A DNA stretch of 64,000 bases, from NCBI GenBank assembly GCA_046154225.1, contig JBJXEM010000007.1:859-64858 (forward strand), given 5' to 3'. Positions 15,923 to 63,846 of this stretch are shown here, one piece after another. Each line of letters opens with the position of its first letter. Position 1 is the first letter of the stretch. The stretch is from Rickettsiales bacterium (lineage in GTDB: Bacteria; Pseudomonadota; Alphaproteobacteria; Rickettsiales; UBA3002). The notes beneath the pieces were generated by a model. The model ran no database searches, was not told the origin of the DNA, and worked only from the letters and a program-made list of their open reading frames with translations. A program made the translations under genes and the position numbers.

Positions 15923-17773
15923 CTAGCCCAACGCTTCTTCGTGGCGACGAATGACGGCGATGAACGCGGCACCGTAGCGCGCAAGCTTCGCATCACCCAC
16001 GCCGCTGATACCGCGTAGCTCCTCGGCATCCCTCGGTTTGCGCTGGGCGAATTCGGCGAGGGTTTTGTCGTGAAAAATCACATAAGGCGGCACGTTATGT
16101 TCGCGCGCGAGCGCGAGGCGCGCGGCTTTTAGCGCGTCGAATAATGTGGCATCCGCCGGGTTCGCCGCGAGGTTCGTGCGTGCAGCGCGTGGCGCGCGTT
16201 CACGCCGTGCAGGGCGGCCCACATACACGCGTAAATGCAAAGCCTCGCGCGCTTTTAGCCACGCATAACCCGTTTGCGTCACCGATAACCCGCCATGTTC
16301 GGCGATGTCGACATGCAGCAGCCCCAGCGCCACCAGTTGGCGAAAAATATTCTGCCATTCCGGCTTGCTCAGCCCTGCACCCACGCCAAAGGTGGGCAAC
16401 TCGTGGTGGCGAAATTGCGTCATGCGGTCGGACGATTTTCCGAGCAGCACATCGATCAGATACATCACCCCAAAGCGCGAGCCGGTGCGGTGCACGGCGG
16501 AAATGGCTTTTTGCGCAGCGATGGTGGCATCGAACGTGGCGGGGGCGGTGTCGCACGTGTCGCAGTTGCCGCAGGGGGGTGCGCCGCCGTCGCCGAAATA
16601 ATGCAGCATGATCTGGCGGCGACAGCTGGCCGCTTCGCACAAGCCCAACAGCGCGTTCAATTTCTGGTGCTCGACGCGTTTTTGGATGTCCGGCGCATTG
16701 CCACCATCGATAAAACTGCGCTGCATGGCGGCGTCTTTCATGCCGTACAGCATCAGTGCTTCGGCCGCCTGCCCGTCGCGCCCGGCACGACCGGTTTCCT
16801 GATAATACGCTTCGATGTTTTTGGGGATGCCCAGATGCGCCACAAACCGCACATCGGGCTTATCGATGCCCATGCCGAACGCCACCGTCGCCACCATTAC
16901 CACCGCTTCTTCGCGCTGGAATTGCTGCTGGTGCACCACGCGCAGCCCCTGCTCCATGCCTGCATGATAGGGCAATGCACGAATCCCTTGCTCCACCAGA
17001 AACGCCGCGATTTCCTCGGTCTGCGCGCGGCTGAGGCAATAGACAATGCCGCTTTCGTTCGCATGGGTGGCGATGAAATCGCGCAATTGCTGCTTCGGAT
17101 TTTTTTTGAGGTCGATGCGGTAATGAATGTTGGGGCGGTCGAACCCGGCCACGAAACTGCGGCCTTCATTTAATTGCAACCGCTCCACAATGTCACGGCG
17201 CGTGGGTGCGTCGGCCGTCGCGGTGAGCGCGATGCGTGGCACGTTTGGAAAACGCGTGGCGAGCAGCCCAAGCTCCATGTAATGCGGCCTGAAATCATGC
17301 CCCCATTGCGACACGCAATGCGCTTCGTCGATCGCGAAGAGCGCGAGCGGCGATTGCTCCAGCAGGTCGAGAAAATCCGGCATCAGCAGTCGCTCGGGCG
17401 CGACATACAGCATGTCGAGCGCACCGTTGCGCAGGTCGCGTTTGGCGTTGGCCACTTCCCCCGCATCAATGAGCGAGTTGATGGCCGCGGCGCGAATGCC
17501 CAGCTCGCGCAACGCCGCCACCTGGTCCTGCATCAGCGCAATCAACGGCGAAATCACGATGCCGACGCCTTGCCGGATGAGCGAGGGAATCTGGTAGCAT
17601 AGCGATTTCCCGCCGCCCGTCGGCATCAGCACGAAGGCATGGCCGCCTGCCACCACATGGTCAATCACCGCCGCCTGCTCACCACGAAACGCGCCGTAGC
17701 CGTAGGTGTGCTGCAGGATATGCAGTGGTGTGGGCTGCGCGGATTCCGCTGAGAGTGGTGAAGCAAGTTGCAT
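15923..17773 (-). CDS. recQ: ATP-dependent DNA helicase RecQ
   Basis: [40 protein letters not shown], the zinc-binding CRRQ..CGNCDTC, and a C-terminal HRDC-like region. The start is uncertain: ORF start 17824, with ATG 17773 fitting the E. coli N-terminus better. Confidence 0.9.
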
Positions 17774-21370: not shown

Positions 21371-21404
21371 TGCAATTAGGCAGCGCTTTCTTACGCACTC
21401 AGCC

Positions 21405-21476
21405 TGTCATCCCGGCCTTGTGCCGGGATCTACCTTCCTTGAGAAAGATGGATCCCGGGATAACCCCGGGATGACA
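21405..21476. repeat. palindromic repeat family A, copy A1 (TGTCATCCCGG..CCGGGATC ... GATCCCGGG..CCCGGGATGACA)
   Basis: Two hairpin arms in inverted orientation. The architecture matches the copies at 32968, 42791 and 44278. Confidence 0.8.
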
Positions 21477-21488
21477 TTTTTCGGGCAA

Positions 21489-21629
21489 TTTATAGTCGAT
21501 TTGAATAAAAACTTTACAATTTTGTCATTCCCGCGAAGGCGGGAATCCACTTTTTCATGAAGGAGATTCCCGCCTTCGCGGGAATGACAAAATACATAGC
21601 ATGTACAAAATTTTCGAAACGACTATAAA
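21489..21629. mobile_element. MITE-like element family B, copy B1 (~141 bp)
   Basis: Terminal inverted repeats TTTATAGTCGATTTG / CGAAACGACTATAAA flank internal arms TTGTCATTCCCGCGAAGGCGGGAATC / GATTCCCGCCTTCGCGGGAATGACAA. The same element is inverted at 34910-35052 and diverged at 40168-40321. Confidence 0.8.
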
Positions 21630-40167: not shown

Positions 40168-40321
40168 AACGACAGTCGAAGCAACCAAAAACCCAAATTT
40201 TGTCATTCCCGCGAAGGCGGGAATCTCCTTTGCCGTTTGCGCTAGGGATTGAATGGGATTCCCGCCTTCGCGGGAATGACAAAGCGAGAGCTGTACGAAA
40301 ATTACGCAAAACGACGATAAT
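40168..40321. mobile_element. MITE-like element family B, copy B3 (diverged termini)
   Basis: Core arms TTTGTCATTCCCGCGAAGGCGGGAATC (40198-40224) and GATTCCCGCCTTCGCGGGAATGACAAA (40257-40283). The termini are degenerate: CGACAGTCG / ACGACGATA. Confidence 0.7.
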
Positions 40322-40584: not shown

Positions 40585-41522
40585 CAGTTCACACCGAAGC
40601 TGCGAACGAGTGAGCCAGCCAGCATGTACCAGCCGTCGATCAGCACGAAGAAAATCACTTTGAACGGCAGCGAAATCACGACCGGCGGCAGCATCATCAT
40701 GCCCATCGCCAGCAGCACCGAGGCGATGACCATGTCGATGATGAGAAACGGTACGAAAATAAGGAACCCGATTTCAAACGAGCGGCGCAATTCGGAAATC
40801 ATGAAGGCCGGAATCACTACGGTGTAGGGCACTGTTTCGGGTGTTTCGACTTTGGTTTTGCTGATGTCAACAAACAGCTGCAAATCCTTCTCGCGCACAT
40901 GGTGCATCATGAAATCGTGGAATGGTGCGGCGGCAAGCTTCAGCCCTTCTTCCTCGCTGATTTTTTCGGCGATGAGGGGCTTGATGCCATCGTCGTAGGC
41001 TTTCTGGAACGTGGGAGTCATGATGAACATGGTGAGAAACAGCGCCAGCGCCACCAGCACTTGGTTGGGCGGGGTGTTTTGCGTGCCCATGGCGGTGCGC
41101 ACGAAGCTGAGCACAATGATAATGCGCATAAAGCTCGTCACCATAATCAGGATCGAAGGCGCGAGGCTCAGTACGGTCAGCAACACCAGCACCTGAATAA
41201 TCCGCGCGGTTGAGGACCCGCCGCCGCCAGCATCGAGGCTAAGGCTCTGTGCCTGCGCGGCTAGGGGCGACAGCAGCAGTGCCAACATGACTGCAGCAAA
41301 ACAGGACCCAACAAATGTCACTCTATATTTACCTCTCCCTTGGGAGAGGTCGAAATCATTCTGCATGATTTCGGGTGAGGGCGTGCGGCGCTTCAGAACG
41401 CCCTCACCCGAAATCCCCTCTAACTCCCCCCGCTTGCAGGGGGAGTTAGAGGGGATTTCGACCTCTCCCAAGGGAGAGGTAAAAAAGTTGGCTGCTTTGT
41501 TCATCAATGCTCGCACGTTCAT
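40584..41522 (-). CDS. fliP: flagellar export apparatus protein FliP (N-terminus carries or is preceded by a family D palindromic element)
   Basis: IIQVLVLLTVLSLAPSILIMVTSFMRIIIVLSFVRTAMGTQNTPPNQVLVALALFLTMFIMTP and later sequence are typical FliP. ATG 41522 forms an ATGA overlap with the fliO stop. An alternative GTG near 41306 lies 10 nt after GGGAGAGG. Confidence 0.85.
   Translation of the reverse strand: MNVRALMNKAANFFTSPLGEVEIPSNSPCKRGELEGISGEGVLKRRTPSPEIMQNDFDLSQGRGKYRVTFVGSCFAAVMLALLLSPLAAQAQSLSLDAGGGGSSTARIIQVLVLLTVLSLAPSILIMVTSFMRIIIVLSFVRTAMGTQNTPPNQVLVALALFLTMFIMTPTFQKAYDDGIKPLIAEKISEEEGLKLAAAPFHDFMMHHVREKDLQLFVDISKTKVETPETVPYTVVIPAFMISELRRSFEIGFLIFVPFLIIDMVIASVLLAMGMMMLPPVVISLPFKVIFFVLIDGWYMLAGSLVRSFGVN
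41329..41482. repeat. family D nested palindromic element, copy D2 (~154 bp)
   Basis: The outer arms TACCTCTCCCTTGGGAGAGGTCGAAAT / ATTTCGACCTCTCCCAAGGGAGAGGTA are reverse complements. Inner hairpins: ATTTCGGGTGAGGGCG..CGCCCTCACCCGAAAT and CCCCTCTAACTCCCCCCgcttgcaGGGGGAGTTAGAGGGG. Confidence 0.85.
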
Positions 41523-42790: not shown

Positions 42791-42876
42791 TGTCATCCCG
42801 GGCTGTGCCGGAATCTGCCGTACGACGCACGCATTGCTTGTTGTTGCGCGGATCTCGGGACAAGCCCGGGATGACA
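42791..42876. repeat. palindromic repeat family A, copy A3
   Basis: TGTCATCCCGGGCTGTGCCGGAATC ... GATCTCGGGACAAGCCCGGGATGACA. Confidence 0.8.
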
Positions 42877-42910
42877 GCACAAGACACATCGATATTTTAT
42901 TCTTGCAAAC

Positions 42911-44277: not shown

Positions 44278-44366
44278 TGTCATCCCGGGTTTATCCCGGG
44301 ATCCAGCCACGCCACGCACTATGCGCTTGAGGCCGGACTGGATCCCGGCACAAGGCCGGGATGACA
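44278..44366. repeat. palindromic repeat family A, copy A4
   Basis: TGTCATCCCGGGTTTATCCCGGGATCCAGCC ... GGACTGGATCCCGGCACAAGGCCGGGATGACA. Confidence 0.85.
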
Positions 44367-44464
44367 GGTGGTTACGGGGCATGCGCCAATAGGCCAGTTA
44401 ATGGTTGGCAGTCGCGCCGTGGCAGGCTAATCACAAGGAACACCAACCTCGCCGGGAACGCGCT

Positions 44465-54213: not shown

Positions 54214-57200
54214 ATGCCCACCACCAGCGACGTTCGCGCCCAGTTTTTGCAATTTTTCGACAGCAAGCAACACCGTGTGTTGCCCAGTTCCAGCCTCGTG
54301 CCGCATAACGACCCGACCCTGATGTTCGCCAACGCAGGCATGAACCAGTTCAAGAATATTTTCACCGGCAACGAAAAGCCGTTAGCCCCACGAGTGACGA
54401 CTACGCAGAAAGTGGTACGCGCCGGGGGCAAACATAACGACCTCGACAATGTGGGCTACACTGCCCGCCACCATACGTTTTTCGAGATGCTCGGCAATTT
54501 CAGTTTCGGCGATTATTTTAAGGAAGGTGCGATTGAATTTGCGTGGGAGCTGCTCACCAACATATGGCAGATTAATCCCGAGAAGCTTTGTGTTACCGTC
54601 TATCATACGGACGATGAAGCCTTTGCACTCTGGAAAAAAATCGCGGGGCTCCCTGAATCGAGAATCATCCGTATCGCCAGCGACGATAATTTCTGGGCGA
54701 TGGGCGACACCGGCCCTTGCGGTCCCTGCTCGGAAATTTTCTACGACCACGGCGCGCATATCGCGGGCGGCCCACCCGGCTCGCCCGATGCCGATGGCGA
54801 CCGGTTCGTGGAAATCTGGAACCTTGTGTTCATGCAGTCCGACCAGAAGGACGCCGACACACGCGTTAATCTTCCCAAACCCTGCATCGATACCGGCATG
54901 GGGCTCGAGCGCATTACCGCCGTGCTGCAAGGGGTTCACGATAATTACGACACGGATTTATTTAAAAACCTGATTGCAGCCTCTGTAAATTTCTCAAAGA
55001 GCAACTCAGCAAAGTCCGCCAGCCACCGTGTCATCGCCGACCATCTGCGCTCCAGCAGTTTTCTCATCGCCGACGGCGTACTGCCCAGTAACGAAGGGCG
55101 CGGCTACGTGCTGCGCCGCATTATGCGCCGCGCGATGCGCCACGCCCACATGCTAGGCTGCCGCGACCCGCTGATGTACAAACTTGTGCCCACGCTGGTT
55201 TCCGAAATGGGCGCCGCCTACCCCGAACTCACCCGCGCCGAAACCGCGATTACCGAAACGCTGAAGCTCGAGGAAGAGCGTTTCAAACAAACGCTGGATC
55301 GCGGGTTAAAACTGCTGGAGGAGGAAAAAGCAAAACTCTTCAGCTCCCCCCCTGAGGGGGAGCGGGCGAGTGTAGCGAGCCGTGGGGGGGACTCTCCACG
55401 CGTCGATGCGCTGAAATCCCCCCCCACCAAATCCGCAGGCGGATTTGACTCCCCCTCGGGGGGGGAGTTGCCAGGGCCCGCCACGCGACCTCAGTTCCCA
55501 GGCGTTGTCGCGTTCAAACTTTACGACACCTTCGGCTTCCCACTCGACCTGACGCAGGATATTTTGCGCGGCGAGAATATTGCGGTCGACCTTGAGGGCT
55601 TCACCGCCGCCATGGACGAGCAAAAAGCCAAAGCCCGCGCGGCGTGGAAAGGCTCGGGGCAGTCGGCCACGGCGGGGCTGTGGTTTGATATTAAAGAACG
55701 CGTCGGCGCGACCGAGTTTTTGGGCTACGCGATGGATGAAGCGGAGGCGCAAGTGGTCGCTATCGTGCATGGCGACGCTGAAGTGCAGTCCGCCGCAGCT
55801 GGCGAAACCGTCAGCGTATTGCTCAATCAAACACCGTTTTACGGCGAATCCGGCGGCCAAATCGGCGATGCGGGAACCTTTAGCGCTAACGGCACTGTCA
55901 TCGGTCTTGTCACCCGCACCGGCAAACTCCTCGATGGGCTGATTGTGCATGAAGTGACGCTCAGCGCATCGCTGAAAGTGGGCGATTCAGTGCAAGCCCA
56001 TATCGCGGGCGATGCACGCCGTCTCATCCGCGCCAACCACTCGGCCACGCACTTGCTGCACGCAGCGCTGCGCGAAAAACTGGGTGAGCACGTTACCCAA
56101 AAGGGCTCGCTCGTGACCGCCGAACGGCTGCGGTTCGACGTGACGAACCCCAAAGCCATCAGCCGCGACGAGTTGGATGCGGTGGAAGCCACGGTCAACC
56201 ACTACGTGGCGCAGCAATCACCCGCCACCACCAAACTGATGACGCAGGATGAAGCCATAAAATCCGGCGCGATGGCGCTGTTCGGCGAAAAATACGGCGA
56301 CGAAGTGCGCGTGCTCGAATTAGGCTACAGAGAAGATACTTCCTTCCTTCACTCCCCCCTTGCGGGGGAGTCGAATCGCCCCTTAAGCGATTCGGTGGGG
56401 GGTACAGCGCCGCAAGAAGCCCCCCACGGATTTTCTCAAGAGAAAATCCCGCTCCCCCGCAAGGGGGGAGCTAAAGTGCCCTTCTCGGTCGAGCTATGCG
56501 GCGGCACCCATGTTGCCAACACCGGCGATATCGGTGCGTTCAAAATTGTCTCGGAAGGCTCGGTCAGCTCCGGTGTGCGGCGAATCGAAGCCGTGACGGG
56601 CGAAGGCGTGCGGGTCTATTTGCTTGAGCAGCTAGAGAAGCTCTCGGCACAGATGCAAGGCCTCATCGGGGAAAATACTCGCCTGCGTGGCGAGCTTAAA
56701 CAACCGGCAAGTGCCGCCATTTCTGCCCCTGATACGGCCGCATTGCACACCGCATCGCTTGCGCAGGTGCCCGCACTTTATGCCGACCAATCCGCCAAAG
56801 CCGCCGCGCCGATTGCTTCGCTCGCGGAAGAAAACAAGAAGCTCGCCAAGCAGCTCGAAAGCGCTAAAAAGCAAGCGGCGATGGATGGCGCAGGCGGCGA
56901 AGCGGATGTTGAAACTATCGGCTCCATCAAACTCGCCAGCAAACATTTTGGCGAGCTGGACGCGAAGTCGCTGCGCGATCTCGCCCAGGCCCTGCAACAA
57001 AAACACGGCGATTGCGTCGTCGTCGCACTTTCCACTACGGAAGGCAAAGCCAACATCATTATCGCCATCGGCAAAGAGATTCAGGGCAAGGTAGCGGCAC
57101 CGGATTTGGTGAAAGTGGCGGTTGAAGCCGTTGGCGGCAAAGGCGGTGGCGGCCGCCCCGAATTCGCCCAAGGCGGCGGGCCTGATGGTGACAAGCTAGA

Positions 57201-59000: not shown

Positions 59001-59029
59001 CGGATTCCAGCTTTCGCTGGAATGACGGG
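59001..59029. repeat. solo arm of the GGATTCCAGCTTTCGCTGGAATGAC repeat
   Basis: Identical to the right outer arm at 35064-35088. No partner arm is nearby. Confidence 0.7.
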
Positions 59030-60557: not shown

Positions 60558-60734
60558 TTGGGTGAGTTTCTGCTATTTATCGTGGAAATCGTCGCTGACT
60601 TTTTAATGTTCCGTCACGTCAAATCGACAGGCGCCATTGATGAGAAAGAGTTTTCATGGATAAAGATTGCCGTTTTTGTCGCCTGTTTGGCCATTGTCGG
60701 TATAATCTTTTTCACCGTGCAATTTAACCGCTAA
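60558..60734 (+). CDS. possible small membrane protein (58 aa, TTG start)
   Basis: Not in ORF track. GGGGGA lies 7 nt upstream of the TTG. The product is GEFLLFIVEIVADFLMF...IAVFVACLAIVGIIFFTVQFNR. It overlaps the convergent hisF-like stop by 11 nt. Confidence 0.25.
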   Translation: MGEFLLFIVEIVADFLMFRHVKSTGAIDEKEFSWIKIAVFVACLAIVGIIFFTVQFNR

Positions 60735-61482
60735 ACGCTGCGGTCATGTCGGCCCTACTCGGCACATTCACCAGTACCGCGCGGTGTTTTCCCTGAAACA
60801 CGAACAGCGCCCCGGCGCTGGCGGCGGAAGCCCCGGCGCGGGTGGCAGCAGCGAGGTTTGCGGCGCTGTTGGCTCCCCCGGCGGCAATAACGGGCACGGT
60901 GGTGTTTTTGGCCACGAGGCCCACCAATTCAAGGTCGTAGCCGCTGAGTGTGCCGTCTTTGTGAATCGCCTGAATCAGGATTTCGCCAGCCCCTTTGGCT
61001 GTCACGTCGCGCACATATTCCTCAAGTAGCGTGGCGATTTTGCGGCTGCCGGATGCGACCATCACCTCATAGCCGCCCAGCAGCTTTTTGCGCACATCGA
61101 TACCCACGACCACGCTTTGGCGACCAAAACGTGCGGCGGCTTCCTCGATAAAACCCGGTGTGCTTGCAGCCGTGGTAATGCAGATTTTTTCACAGCCGAG
61201 GCGGTAGAGGCGCTCCATTTGCGCCACGTTTTTCACGCCTCCGCCATAGCATAGCGGCATAAAGCATTCGCTCGCCAGTTCACCGATGAGCGCGTAATTC
61301 GGTTCGCGCCCTTCGCGCGTCGCGTCGATGTCGAGCAACATGAGCTCATCAACGCCTTTGTCGTTAAAAATCCGCGCGGTGTTGATGGCGTCGCCCACAT
61401 AGCGGTGGTTGGCGAATTTTTCGCCCTTCACCAGCCCGGTTTTGCGTAGCAGCAGGCAAGGAATGATGCGCGGTCTAGCCAT
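60724..61482 (-). CDS. imidazole glycerol phosphate synthase cyclase subunit homologue (HisF/WbuZ-like, sugar acetamidino modification type)
   Basis: RIIPCLLLRKTGLVKGEKF, VDELMLLDIDA, PLCYGGGV, PVIAAGGA. It is clustered with the hisH-like and N-acetyl sugar amidotransferase genes. Confidence 0.8.
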   Translation of the reverse strand: MARPRIIPCLLLRKTGLVKGEKFANHRYVGDAINTARIFNDKGVDELMLLDIDATREGREPNYALIGELASECFMPLCYGGGVKNVAQMERLYRLGCEKICITTAASTPGFIEEAAARFGRQSVVVGIDVRKKLLGGYEVMVASGSRKIATLLEEYVRDVTAKGAGEILIQAIHKDGTLSGYDLELVGLVAKNTTVPVIAAGGANSAANLAAATRAGASAASAGALFVFQGKHRAVLVNVPSRADMTAAFSG

Positions 61483-61864
61483 GCGTCACTTCCCGCAAAT
61501 CGTAGTGAAACACTTTTGCAATAATCTGCCAGCGATCTGCCACGCATATCAATGTCAGGAAGTCGGTAAAAAATTTTATCCCAATTGCGCATTGTACTTT
61601 GGCAAACGCCGTCACCGGCCCAGCAAACTCGATGGAAATTATGCGGTCAGCGCGCTGTTCATTACGACTGGCAGGGGATTCGCGCTTGGCTACCACTTGG
61701 AAATACTCATCCATATGCAAATGCAGTAATGTTCCGTCCGTGGCGCAAGAATATTGGGCTTTGGGGTGAAAAACCTGCTGCAATAACCCTACATCACTAT
61801 GATAAAGCCCATCGAAATACTGGTTTAGCACTGCTGCCACCGCATGAAAATCATTGCTAGCCAT
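61475..61864 (-). CDS. NTF2/SnoaL-like fold protein (129 aa)
   Basis: AVAAVLNQYFDGLYHSDVGLLQQVFHPKAQY ... RWQIIAKVFHYD resembles NTF2-like (lumazine-binding-type) proteins. It has 8-nt overlaps with both neighbours. Confidence 0.55.
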   Translation of the reverse strand: MASNDFHAVAAVLNQYFDGLYHSDVGLLQQVFHPKAQYSCATDGTLLHLHMDEYFQVVAKRESPASRNEQRADRIISIEFAGPVTAFAKVQCAIGIKFFTDFLTLICVADRWQIIAKVFHYDLREVTHG

Positions 61865-62594
61865 GGAATTCCTCCGCGAAGGCTTTCAAAAACCGCATGC
61901 CGAAGGCGTGGCTTTTTTCGGGGTGGAACTGCGCGCCCACCACATTGCCGCGCGCGAAAGCCGATACAAAATCGTGCCCATAATGGGTGGTGCCCAGCAC
62001 ATCGGACTTTTCGGCGCAGGTGACGTAATAGGAATGCACAAAGTAAAAGCGCGGAGGTTCACTCCCTCCCCCAGAGGGGGAGGGTTGGGGTGGGGGCGAC
62101 TCAAGCGTTGATCCAGGAATATTATCCGCAGTGCCAATCAGCCCCCCTCCCAACCTCCCCCCTCCAGGGGGAGGAACTTGTTCGGCGTAGCCATTTGCGA
62201 AAGGACTGGCGGGGGCGAATGCCACTTCGTCCCAGCCCATATGCGGCACGGGTAACGGCGCCACATCGCGAAATTCGCGCACGGTCGCATCTATCCAGCC
62301 CAGCCCGTCGCAATCGCCCTCTTCGCTGTGCTTGGCCATCAGCTGCATGCCGAGGCAAATGCCTAAAATCGGGGTTTTTTGGCCCAGCACGGCCGTGTCA
62401 AGCGCTGCGCGGTAGCCGCTTTGGTTCAGCCACGCCATCACCGTGGCGAAATGGCCCACGCCAGGTAGGATAACCTTGCTGGCACCCAGCACATCTGCGG
62501 GCGATTGGGCAATACGGGCAGCCACGCCAATGCGTTTGAGCATATTGGCGACCGAGCTGATGTTGCTTTGCTGGGTGTCGATTAAAGTGATCAT
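61857..62594 (-). CDS. glutamine amidotransferase HisH/WbuY-like subunit carrying an in-frame palindromic-element insertion
   Basis: Start at ATG 62594 (MITLIDTQQSN). Motifs: VILPGVGHF, PILGICLGMQLM (catalytic Cys), VPHMGWDEV, FYFVHSYY, GAQFHPEKS. Confidence 0.85.
   Translation of the reverse strand: MITLIDTQQSNISSVANMLKRIGVAARIAQSPADVLGASKVILPGVGHFATVMAWLNQSGYRAALDTAVLGQKTPILGICLGMQLMAKHSEEGDCDGLGWIDATVREFRDVAPLPVPHMGWDEVAFAPASPFANGYAEQVPPPGGGRLGGGLIGTADNIPGSTLESPPPQPSPSGGGSEPPRFYFVHSYYVTCAEKSDVLGTTHYGHDFVSAFARGNVVGAQFHPEKSHAFGMRFLKAFAEEFHG
62053..62178. repeat. family D palindromic element D5, in frame inside the hisH-like gene (~42 codons; boundaries approximate)
   Basis: Hairpins CCCTCCCCCagaGGGGGAGGG and CCTCCCCCCtccaGGGGGAGG. 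It encodes PPPGGGRLGGGLIGTADNIPGSTLESPPPQPSPSGGGSEPP between FANGYAEQV and RFYFVHSY. Confidence 0.75.
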
Positions 62595-62700
62595 GTGCGT
62601 GGTGGGTGGTGAGTGGTGAGTAGTGGCGTTGCGTATAGTTTGTGCTACATAGCATCGGCTTTTTACTTTCACTACTCACAACTCACCACCCACCACGCAC
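62595..62700. repeat. heptad (GTGNGTG)n inverted repeat, family C copy 2, occupying the whole divergent intergenic region
   Basis: GTGCGTGGTGGGTGGTGAGTGGTGAGTAGTG (62595-62625) and CACTACTCACAACTCACCACCCACCACGCAC (62670-62700) form a 31-bp inverted repeat with 1 mismatch. Each arm abuts a start codon (62594 and 62701). Confidence 0.85.
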
Positions 62701-63846
62701 ATGCAACAAACTACTTGCCAAGTCTGCATCATGGACACGACGGACCCCGAAATTGTGTTTCACGGGGCGGATGGCTGCAATCATTGCATCAACGCCCGCG
62801 CACGCATCGAACACGACGCGTTTCCCGGGACCGAGGGTGAAGCGCGGCTGGCCGCACTCGCCGAAACCATTAAAGCCGCAGGGCGCGGCCGGGAATATGA
62901 CTGCCTCGTCGGCATTTCCGGTGGGGTGGATTCGAGCTACGTGATTTACAAGGCAAAGCAACTCGGCCTGCGCCCGCTCGCCCTGCATCTCGATAATGGC
63001 TGGAACTCGGAACTGGCCGTGCATAACATCGAGCGGCTGATGACCAAACTGGGCATCGACCTTGTCACCCACGTCGTCGACTGGGAAGAAATCCGCGATA
63101 TGCAGCGCGCCTGTTTCAACGTGCCGCTGATGGATATCGAAATCGTGTCCGACCACGCTATTTTCGCGGCCATGTTTAAAACCGCCGCGCAGCACGGCAT
63201 TAAATACATTCTCTCCGGCAGCAACGTGGCGACGGAATCCATCATGCCGCGTGCGTGGTTTTACGATAAGCGCGATAGTCGCCATGTGCGCGCAGTGCAT
63301 CGCAAATTCGGCGCAGGCGTACGGCTAAAAACATTTCCGTTCTTATCACCGTGGAAGTTTTTGCAATATGTGTTCGTGAATAAAATCCGGATGATTCCGA
63401 TGTTGAATTATGGCGGTTTCAACAAACCGATGGCGGTGGAATTTTTAGGCCGCGAATTCGACTGGCGCCCCTACCCCAACAAGCACGGCGAATCGACGTT
63501 CACGCGGTTTTTTCAGGATTATTATCTGCCCGCCAAATTCGGCATCGACAAGCGCCGGGCTCATTTCTCGAGCATGATCGCGGCCGGCCAAATGACGCGC
63601 GACGAAGCCATTTCGCGACTAAGCACGCCATTATTTACGCCCGAAGCACTAGCGATTGAGAAAGAATATGTGTTGAAAAAGCTGGGCTACACCTCCCCGG
63701 AATGGGACGCGATCATGGCCCGCCCGGCCACGCCGCATCAGGCCCTGCCGCATAATGGCTGGATGTTTAACACCAACAACCCGCTGGTGCAGTTCATTCG
63801 CCGCACCACCAAAATGGAACGCGGGGCGCGCGGGGGGCGTGCATGA
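62701..63846 (+). CDS. N-acetyl sugar amidotransferase (WbpG/PseA-like PP-loop ATP pyrophosphatase)
   Basis: N-terminal CQVC...CNHC zinc ribbon and the PP-loop CLVGISGGVDSSYV. It pairs with the hisH/hisF-like genes. Confidence 0.8.
   Translation: MQQTTCQVCIMDTTDPEIVFHGADGCNHCINARARIEHDAFPGTEGEARLAALAETIKAAGRGREYDCLVGISGGVDSSYVIYKAKQLGLRPLALHLDNGWNSELAVHNIERLMTKLGIDLVTHVVDWEEIRDMQRACFNVPLMDIEIVSDHAIFAAMFKTAAQHGIKYILSGSNVATESIMPRAWFYDKRDSRHVRAVHRKFGAGVRLKTFPFLSPWKFLQYVFVNKIRMIPMLNYGGFNKPMAVEFLGREFDWRPYPNKHGESTFTRFFQDYYLPAKFGIDKRRAHFSSMIAAGQMTRDEAISRLSTPLFTPEALAIEKEYVLKKLGYTSPEWDAIMARPATPHQALPHNGWMFNTNNPLVQFIRRTTKMERGARGGRA

Follow-up and report, generated by a model that had tools for sequence, protein, structure and literature searches.

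The DNA analysed here is a 64,000-nt stretch (the window) of contig JBJXEM010000007.1 from a Rickettsiales bacterium (assembly GCA_046154225.1, positions 859 to 64,858), with 57% G+C and a set of flagellar genes, in which a conserved amidotransferase gene is interrupted in frame by a GC-rich palindromic element. The host gene (61857–62594, minus strand) encodes a HisH/WbuY-type class I glutamine amidotransferase of 245 amino acids (aa), insert included, which is identical to NCBI MFM9889408.1, a protein annotated as HisH in a metagenome-assembled genome labelled 'Rickettsiales bacterium'. It matches the HisH model TIGR01855 with 200 bits, the match being split into two stretches, and also Pfam GATase. 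The catalytic triad is encoded at 62355–62357 (Cys80), 61923–61925 (His224) and 61917–61919 (Glu226). Nearby lie a partner cyclase-like subunit of the AglZ/HisF2/WbuZ family (60724–61482, minus strand; NF038364, 325.6 bits against a cut-off of 310) and, divergent from the host gene, a WbuX-type N-acetyl sugar amidotransferase (62701–63846, plus strand; TIGR03573, 272.6 bits). The class I GATase fold, the Cys-His-Glu triad and the two neighbours place the gene in the HisH/WbuY group and, because these neighbours are HisF2/WbuZ-like and WbuX-type proteins, the gene, for which we keep the name hisH, is the glutaminase of a sugar-amidation module, not a histidine-pathway hisH.

The inserted element occupies 62055–62177 (minus strand), 123 nt corresponding to codons 140–180, and is read as VPPPGGGRLGGGLIGTADNIPGSTLESPPPQPSPSGGGSEP, a peptide with 10 prolines and 11 glycines that stands in the open reading frame (ORF) between FANGYAEQ and PRFYFVHSY. 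The initial annotation, made from the letters of the window, had recognized an insertion here of about 42 codons; the insertion stands, whereas alignment with the closest homologues gives its exact length as 41 codons, stop-free in the host frame. In agreement, BLAST alignments against empty loci (L127 and L004) end at 62054 and pick up at 62181. The insert is a long imperfect palindrome with halves that are inverted copies of one ~33-nt unit, so that either strand folds into one long hairpin. The unit consists of a terminal hairpin, CTCCCCC-loop-GGGGGAG, followed by a G-run, and the order on the plus strand is flank AGGTTCACT, hairpin, G-run, 45-nt centre, C-run, hairpin, AAC. Both terminal hairpins quoted in the initial annotation are present, at 62064–62084 (CCCTCCCCC AGA GGGGGAGGG; the 3' end of the insert in the coding sense) and at 62154–62174 (CCTCCCCC CTCCA GGGGGAGG; the 5' end). 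The inner stem is formed by the G-run TTGGGGTGGGGG at 62085–62096 and the C-run CCCCCCTCCCAA at 62142–62153, which pair with each other and enclose the variable centre at 62097–62141.

These features are beyond chance. The arm sequence CCCTCCCCC occurs three times in the window against 0.48 expected, and the unit pattern CTCCCCC-N3-5-GGGGGAG-N7-37-GGGGGG has eight matches, compared with none in 100 shuffles. The predicted folding energy of the 126-nt stretch is −76.8 kcal/mol, against −57.5 ± 4.1 for shuffled sequences, none of 200 being as low (z-score −4.7). The centre contains the 10-mer CAAGCGTTGA, previously pointed out as common to an intergenic half copy at 32858–32936; it occurs only at 32927 and 62102 in the window, against 0.19 occurrences expected, and in both cases at the same position after the G-run.

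Comparison with relatives demonstrates that the insertion is evolutionarily labile and the site polymorphic. Among intact homologues that lack the insert, the 17 closest are 200–216 aa long and read GYxED|PRFYF across the site; these comprise P0002–P0005 (204–206 aa, GYAE(D/N)-PRFYFVHSY), which are 85–87% identical to the host protein outside the insert, and 13 further intact close homologues. Because the nearest orthologues lack the insert and the insert belongs to a repeat family, the orthologue alignment disposes of the possibility that the segment is ancestral and non-repetitive. A sister element is found at this very codon boundary of hisH in two relatives: P0006 (loci L001 and L002), with an intact insert of 150 nt, and the hisH of GCA_947441895.1 (L003, 1804–2541), with an insert of 126 nt that keeps the frame and contains an in-frame TAG in its centre. 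The gene call at L003 is truncated (P0021) because of this TAG; the downstream HisH frame is perfectly preserved. All three hisH inserts start with (G/A)TTCCTCC and end with GGGAGGGAG plus 4–7 nt. Their arms are ~90–97% identical, the stems being nearly the same in the window and L003 copies and more diverged in the L001 copy, and their loops and centres are unalignable. The hisH DNA of the filled locus L003 is 95.3–95.8% identical to that of the empty loci L125 and L126, and L003 and L125 are colinear over ~5 kb at roughly 96–97% identity, the wbuX-hisH spacer of L125 holding other palindromic repeats that are absent from L003. Given such near-identical filled and empty loci, presence or absence of the element must have changed recently, and several repeat families must be active in this group.

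The insert is, in all likelihood, a copy of a non-autonomous mobile GC-rich palindrome that is kept only where the reading frame is preserved and the recipient loop is permissive. The element consists of two inverted units, resembling repetitive extragenic palindromic (REP) sequences, around a variable centre. It entered the hisH/wbuY-type gene at the codon boundary GYAE(D/Q)|PRFYF and added a stop-free multiple of three nucleotides (3n). The copy would be transcribed and translated with the gene, the enzyme would keep working, and copies that disrupt the frame, introduce a stop or land in structured parts of a protein would be purged by selection. That several copies lie in frame in conserved enzymes would then be explained by this filter, which removes other insertions, and by arms composed of G and C only, which are free of stops.

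The reading frames support such a filter. All five intragenic copies examined, that is, the hisH inserts of 123, 126 and 150 nt and two copies in alaS, are 3n, and four of the five are open. Because stops are absent from only 12 of the 30 reading frames of the element, a random hit would be both in frame and open in only ~13% of cases (~1/8), in support of the selection for frame-preserving, stop-free insertions that was proposed at the outset. Stop-freeness is nevertheless partly compositional, since the G/C-only arms cannot encode a stop codon in any frame. No particular peptide is selected, because hisH and alaS use different frames of the element: hisH reads PPPGGGRLGGG...SPSGGG, and alaS reads SPPEGER or SPLAGES. 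A word-indexed protein search with the 41-residue insert peptide returned no candidate, and an exhaustive phmmer search against 1.84 billion proteins yielded only four repetitive proteins; the peptide thus belongs to no protein-level family. An unfiltered or decaying insertion is exemplified by the L003 copy, whose stop lies in a dispensable gene for sugar modification. The same copy could be taken to mean that the insert is never translated, being cut out of the RNA or jumped over by the ribosome in the manner of the mitochondrial GC-rich 'byp' elements, given that the HisH frame downstream of its TAG is so well maintained. We regard this as extremely improbable: a single nonsense mutation in a dispensable gene explains L003, neither the 3n length of all five intragenic copies nor the openness of four would be needed if the element were skipped, and there are no intron or intein features.

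At the protein level, too, the data fit the persistence of a frame-preserving mobile palindrome in a permissive loop. Across an alignment of 63 sequences, Cys80, His224 and Glu226 do not vary, and the ratio of nonsynonymous to synonymous substitution rates of the window gene, with the insert removed, is 0.14–0.15 relative to two empty orthologues, whose ratio to each other is 0.16. Purifying selection acts on the host gene, which is intact and looks functional, judging from its sequence and predicted structure. In an AlphaFold2 model, the predicted local distance difference test score (pLDDT) of the core is above 90, whereas residues 139–176 score below 50 and lack secondary structure; in a Foldseek comparison with HisH crystal structures, the core reaches template modelling (TM) scores of 0.85–0.88 on the target. 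We infer that the insert is translated as a 41-residue Pro/Gly-rich disordered surface loop that is tolerated by the enzyme. By sequence mapping, the insert falls between Tyr136 and Tyr137 of Thermotoga maritima HisH, and Tyr184 of the window protein corresponds to Tyr138. The latter is one of two mutated residues in PDB 2WJZ ('K181A Y138A ... constitutive glutaminase activity') and is one of the conserved HisH residues that have been linked to allostery (bioRxiv 10.1101/565457). Because the loop base is four residues before the Tyr138 equivalent, the loop may not be distant from the HisF interface, as the initial annotation had hoped it would be. This proximity, together with the filling of the site in three lineages and the raised divergence in the flank adjoining the L003 insert, could be read as a sign of co-option, in which a Pro/Gly segment next to the HisF2-facing tyrosine alters docking or regulation and is positively selected. 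Such a role is very unlikely, given that the three hisH inserts have unrelated centres, one of them with a stop, that the segment is disordered in the model, that it is missing from most close relatives, and that other proteins read the same element in other frames.

The window holds five copies of the palindromic element, with fold z-scores from −4.7 to −17. In addition to the hisH insert, these are two in-frame copies in alaS (55344–55467 and 56352–56470, plus strand), a CTCTCC variant upstream of fliP (41328–41483), and the intergenic half copy at 32858–32936 (plus strand), which comprises a terminal hairpin, an internal hairpin, a G-run and the start of a centre. The two alaS copies and the copy at 41328–41483 have an extra hairpin on each side between the terminal hairpin and the G-run, thus forming a four-way junction (z-scores −7.6, −10.1 and −17.3, respectively), whereas the hisH copy is without internal hairpins. 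The hisH copy had been counted as the third independent in-frame hit in a conserved enzyme; the hits in hisH and at the two alaS sites are indeed in frame, but the copy at 41328–41483 cannot be added to them, as it precedes the true start of FliP and is of uncertain coding status. This last copy is a 156-nt nested palindrome, and within one of its internal hairpins sits another hairpin, CTCCCCCC...GGGGGAG. The window also contains two other families of palindromic repeats, of the GTCATTCCCGCGAAGGCGGGAATC and TGTCATCCCGGGnnnnCCCGGGATCC types (21403–21613, 32964–33060, 34877–35091, 40196–40283, 42845–42885, 44278–44370 and 59002–59028). Every copy of these is intergenic, in contrast to the filtered in-frame element; the one at 59002–59028 gives the icd ORF a false N-terminus (MAGRIPAFAGMTG).

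The AlaRS encoded in the window is 1008 aa long and carries both inserts. Site 1, located after LLEEEKAKL, is filled also in P0133, P0138, P0151 and P0180, that is, in at least five lineages, and is empty in P0123–P0130; site 2, immediately before FSVELCGG, is filled also in P0180 and P0198, hence in three lineages. At site 1, the closest AlaRS homologue (P0122, locus L129) has a 13-residue, AT-shifted segment (NSASNQLERLANKKTI) that looks like the remnant of a decayed, partly deleted copy. The site-1 copies of the window, L128 and L130 have a terminal loop sequence in common (CCTGA/TCAGG). Their internal hairpins differ completely in sequence, and all are perfect except the left-hand one of the window copy. 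Separately, AlaRS of the window's clade is ~917 aa long versus ~880 in other Alphaproteobacteria, owing to ~37 extra residues in the C-terminal helical region (window alaS ~56800–56950; alignment columns ~850–890), a segment that does not have the appearance of a palindromic element.

Among Rfam families, the sister copies match whalefall-1 (RF01762), which Weinberg et al. (2010, PMC2864571) found in whale-fall metagenomes only and described as a probable non-coding RNA. The model, which consists of a conserved hairpin (CUCUCC..GGAGAG), a covarying hairpin and then GGGUGAGG, corresponds to a single arm of the element. In the copy at 41328–41483, both arms score above the gathering threshold of 37 bits (46.9 and 43.2), the right arms of the alaS copies approach it (31.4 and 26.9 bits; E-values of 6e-6 and 1.5e-4), and the hisH copy, which is without the second hairpin, falls below it (15.7 bits, E = 0.3), with otherwise only generic hairpin (microRNA-precursor) noise in the Rfam search. 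Whereas whalefall-1 was described as free-standing, the same architecture is found here as half of an inverted-repeat element that also occurs inside genes, which suggests that whalefall-1 is the arm of a mobile inverted repeat and not a stand-alone small RNA.

Could the palindrome, then, be kept for a role in RNA or single-stranded DNA, such as mRNA stability, translation pausing or assembly, with its coding capacity incidental? Apart from the Rfam scores of the sister copies, this whalefall-1-related scenario would account for the internal hairpins, which remain nearly perfectly paired with a mean pairwise identity of only 0.48 among 34 distinct segments from the window and the fetched loci (z below −2 in 25 of the 34, median −3.1), and for the arms, which are much better conserved between lineages than the host gene. 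The internal hairpins could indeed reflect selection on structure, or else exchange between copies. However, the hisH copy has no such hairpins and barely resembles the whalefall-1 model, the closest orthologues lack the element, and the units are found on both strands, singly or in inverted pairs, in intergenic as well as coding positions and in unrelated genes, as is typical of selfish repeats. We therefore consider a nucleic acid-level function quite unlikely.

The unit is found widely among Alphaproteobacteria and in metagenomes. When GTDB species genomes were scanned with the unit pattern, at least 120 stretches matched; among the matches listed, the named records are mostly Alphaproteobacteria across many orders, including Mesorhizobium, Agrobacterium, Brucella, Caulobacter, Sphingomonas, Bradyrhizobium, Hyphomicrobiales, Stellaceae and others, and the element is mostly intergenic or at gene ends, with further outer palindromes in some subfamilies (Mesorhizobium/Brucella-type copies). 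Scanning metagenomes with the hisH-type arm yielded at least 128 matches, among those listed mostly single units, often directly upstream of genes, and some inverted doublets; many belong to larger composite repeats. Within these listed metagenome matches, the unit is in frame inside four recognizable proteins on unrelated JGI contigs (L135, L136, L187 and L215), and the Pfam domains are split or cut where it is inserted: TrmD, where Pfam tRNA_m1G_MT matches in two stretches; leucyl/phenylalanyl-tRNA-protein transferase (Aat), split at profile position 105; a family-2 glycosyltransferase (GT2); and a PhoR-type histidine kinase, with the insert within HisKA. These proteins read PPPxGGRxGGG or SPxxGEVRRG, that is, both frames. 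At a further locus, L130, a hisH-type unit (17392–17430) lies at the 3' end of a Bac_transf gene and seems to supply its C-terminal codons and stop region. We do not claim that all pattern matches across phyla form one homologous family.

With regard to how the element moves, empty sites are scar-free, and no consistent target-site duplication was found in the filled/empty pairs window/L127 and L003/L125, nor was a duplication or target motif consistent across the flanks and palindrome extensions of the 55 elements compared. A GAAC that flanks both ends of the window copy was considered as a duplication and dismissed, as it is not reproduced in L003. The lack of target-site duplications and of scars is a better fit to HUH/Y1-type transposition or to recombination than to a miniature inverted-repeat transposable element (MITE) moved by a DDE-type transposase. 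Moreover, the hairpin ends look alike on either strand, resembling IS200/IS605- or REP-associated tyrosine transposase (RAYT)-type transposition. Thus, the data fit either single-strand, hairpin-dependent transposition (HUH/Y1, of the IS200/IS605 or RAYT type) or the spread of a filled allele by homologous recombination.

Recombination has left a possible trace at L003. The 33 nt just upstream of its insert are identical to L125 at only 22 of 33 positions, compared with 34/36 and 125/128 further upstream, 34/36 downstream and ~97% identity in the rest of the gene, and this divergent stretch suggests a tract that was brought in by recombination along with the element; no sampled allele, including the P0015 type, matched it at more than 24 of 33 positions as a donor. 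On the other hand, a neighbour-joining tree built from the core protein places each of the three filled hisH alleles in a subclade of its own, nested among alleles that are empty. This pattern, the unalignable centres flanked by arms of such high identity, the recurrent filling of both alaS sites and the scar-free empty sites could all be accommodated by site-specific, homing-like integration, whereby machinery recognizing a sequence or a small hairpin repeatedly and independently enters the same site and selection on the loop is secondary; the empty L125 site, CCGCG-AAGAC-CCGCGG, could form such a hairpin, with the insertion point in its loop. We nonetheless think this unlikely: the hisH and alaS targets have no motif in common and show no target-site duplication, the common CCTGA/TCAGG loop of the alaS site-1 copies and the P0122 remnant point to common descent plus loss, and the L003 tract has the appearance of an import. 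A more elaborate variant, which we put forward as doubtful, would have the element integrate and excise seamlessly at defined codon boundaries as a site-directed, frame-preserving 'coding REPIN' (REP doublet forming hairpins), moved by a hairpin-recognizing single-strand transposase or homing-like recombination, with the internal hairpins taking part in the mechanism and whalefall-1 representing one arm; it is prompted by the hisH boundary filled in three subclades, the alaS site filled in at least five lineages and the lack of scars.

Several observations weigh against the filtered, non-autonomous palindrome that we favour. The filling of the same hisH boundary in three subclades and of the same alaS sites in several lineages is a poor fit to random insertion followed by selection. 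This recurrence could reflect target specificity, survival in a few permissive loops, or one old insertion that recombination has spread and that has disappeared from other lineages; repeated hits are favoured by the pattern of the tree and by the lack of relation among the centres, whereas the divergent tract of L003, the common loop sequences and the P0122 remnant favour descent with recombination. Furthermore, no transposase or other mobilizing gene was found: a tblastn search of the window with an approximate E. coli RayT query gave no match, and the ~1 Mb of fetched loci yielded, with the same approximate query, a single RAYT-like gene, in L062. This gene is flanked by different, unrelated GTAG-type REPs and was rejected as the mobilizer because nothing links it to the element. 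Translation through the insert is inferred, and, with the base of the loop apparently so close to an interface or regulatory tyrosine, the loop may not be a harmless surface feature. Finally, the pattern-gathered matches across phyla may be partly convergent rather than homologous.

Other features of the locus deserve mention. Between hisH and hisF2, the window contains a gene for a 129-aa Lumazine_bd_2 protein (PF12893; 61475–61864, minus strand), whereas in the relatives L001, L003, L004 and L125, hisF2 directly follows hisH without this gene; the two overlap in L001, L004 and L125, and in L003 only the truncated gene call separates them. The divergent start codons of hisH (CAT on the plus strand) and wbuX (ATG) form the outer ends of a 34-nt inverted repeat that is 97% complementary with a 44-nt spacer (62592–62625 and 62670–62703), through which the 5' regions of the two genes could pair or extrude a cruciform. 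Elsewhere in the window, a 1654-aa ORF (26234–31198) contains two arrays of tandem repeats, one with a period of 39 nt (26324–26689; seven copies, up to 98% identical) and the other of 45 nt (29156–29605; seven copies).

These findings extend the phenomenon of selfish palindromes in coding genes, best documented for the AT-rich Rickettsia palindromic elements (RPEs), to a widespread GC-rich, REP-like family. The insertions are natural experiments that mark permissive loops, in a HisH-type amidotransferase, AlaRS, TrmD, Aat and a PhoR-type kinase, and they carry a warning for annotation, as repeat DNA can be the source of Pro/Gly-rich segments of 40–50 residues in otherwise conserved proteins. 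More unusual are the apparent identity of whalefall-1 as an arm of the element and, together with it, the recurrent sites; identical sites that are filled repeatedly and internal hairpins that are variable yet perfect could lead to the insertion mechanism.

Among known systems, bacterial MITEs are, like the present element, small and non-autonomous with inverted repeats, and some, such as ERIC, the Coxiella QMITE and the Anabaena MITEs, are fused in frame with host ORFs (PMC2229807, PMC5896051, PMC10969869). They usually have terminal inverted repeats related to those of insertion sequences (IS) as well as target-site duplications, neither of which was found for the hisH element; with regard to DDE-type MITEs in particular, the inverted ends are present and the duplication is not. 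Another parallel is provided by REP/REPIN elements, which are mobilized by RAYT transposases (Bertels and Rainey 2011, PMC3116915; Di Nocera 2013, PMC3733652) and which likewise comprise a palindromic unit, ~33 nt here, that occurs singly or as inverted doublets folding into a long hairpin, produce no target-site duplication and show presence/absence polymorphism. The present unit, however, ends in (G/A)TTCC-CTCCCCC and is without a GTAG or CGTC head, no RAYT flanked by a hisH-type unit was found in the window or the ~1 Mb of loci with the approximate query, and the hisH copy is coding, whereas REPs are extragenic by definition. A literature search with the arm sequence found no paper containing it.

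The closest counterparts in behaviour are the RPEs, palindromic repeats found in frame in many unrelated genes (Ogata et al. 2000 Science, 2002 Genome Res, summarized in PMC10969869), each family of which encodes a conserved peptide (review, PMC10969869). Both are palindromic repeats of ~100–150 bp in many copies (the hisH insert has 123 nt, and the window five copies), in both, a large share of the copies lies in frame in unrelated housekeeping genes without disrupting them (here hisH and two sites in alaS), to be read as extra segments that fold and function accommodate, and both have alphaproteobacterial hosts. Unlike RPEs, the hisH element has no conserved peptide, as its frame differs between hosts, and its unit also occurs as a REP-like single copy across many alphaproteobacterial orders. 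RPEs are AT-rich and the hisH element, with its poly-C/poly-G hairpins, is GC-rich; homology between the two is therefore unlikely. By analogy, measured against the description of RPEs, the element appears to behave like an RPE and would be a new example of protein-coding palindromes in a different bacterial group.

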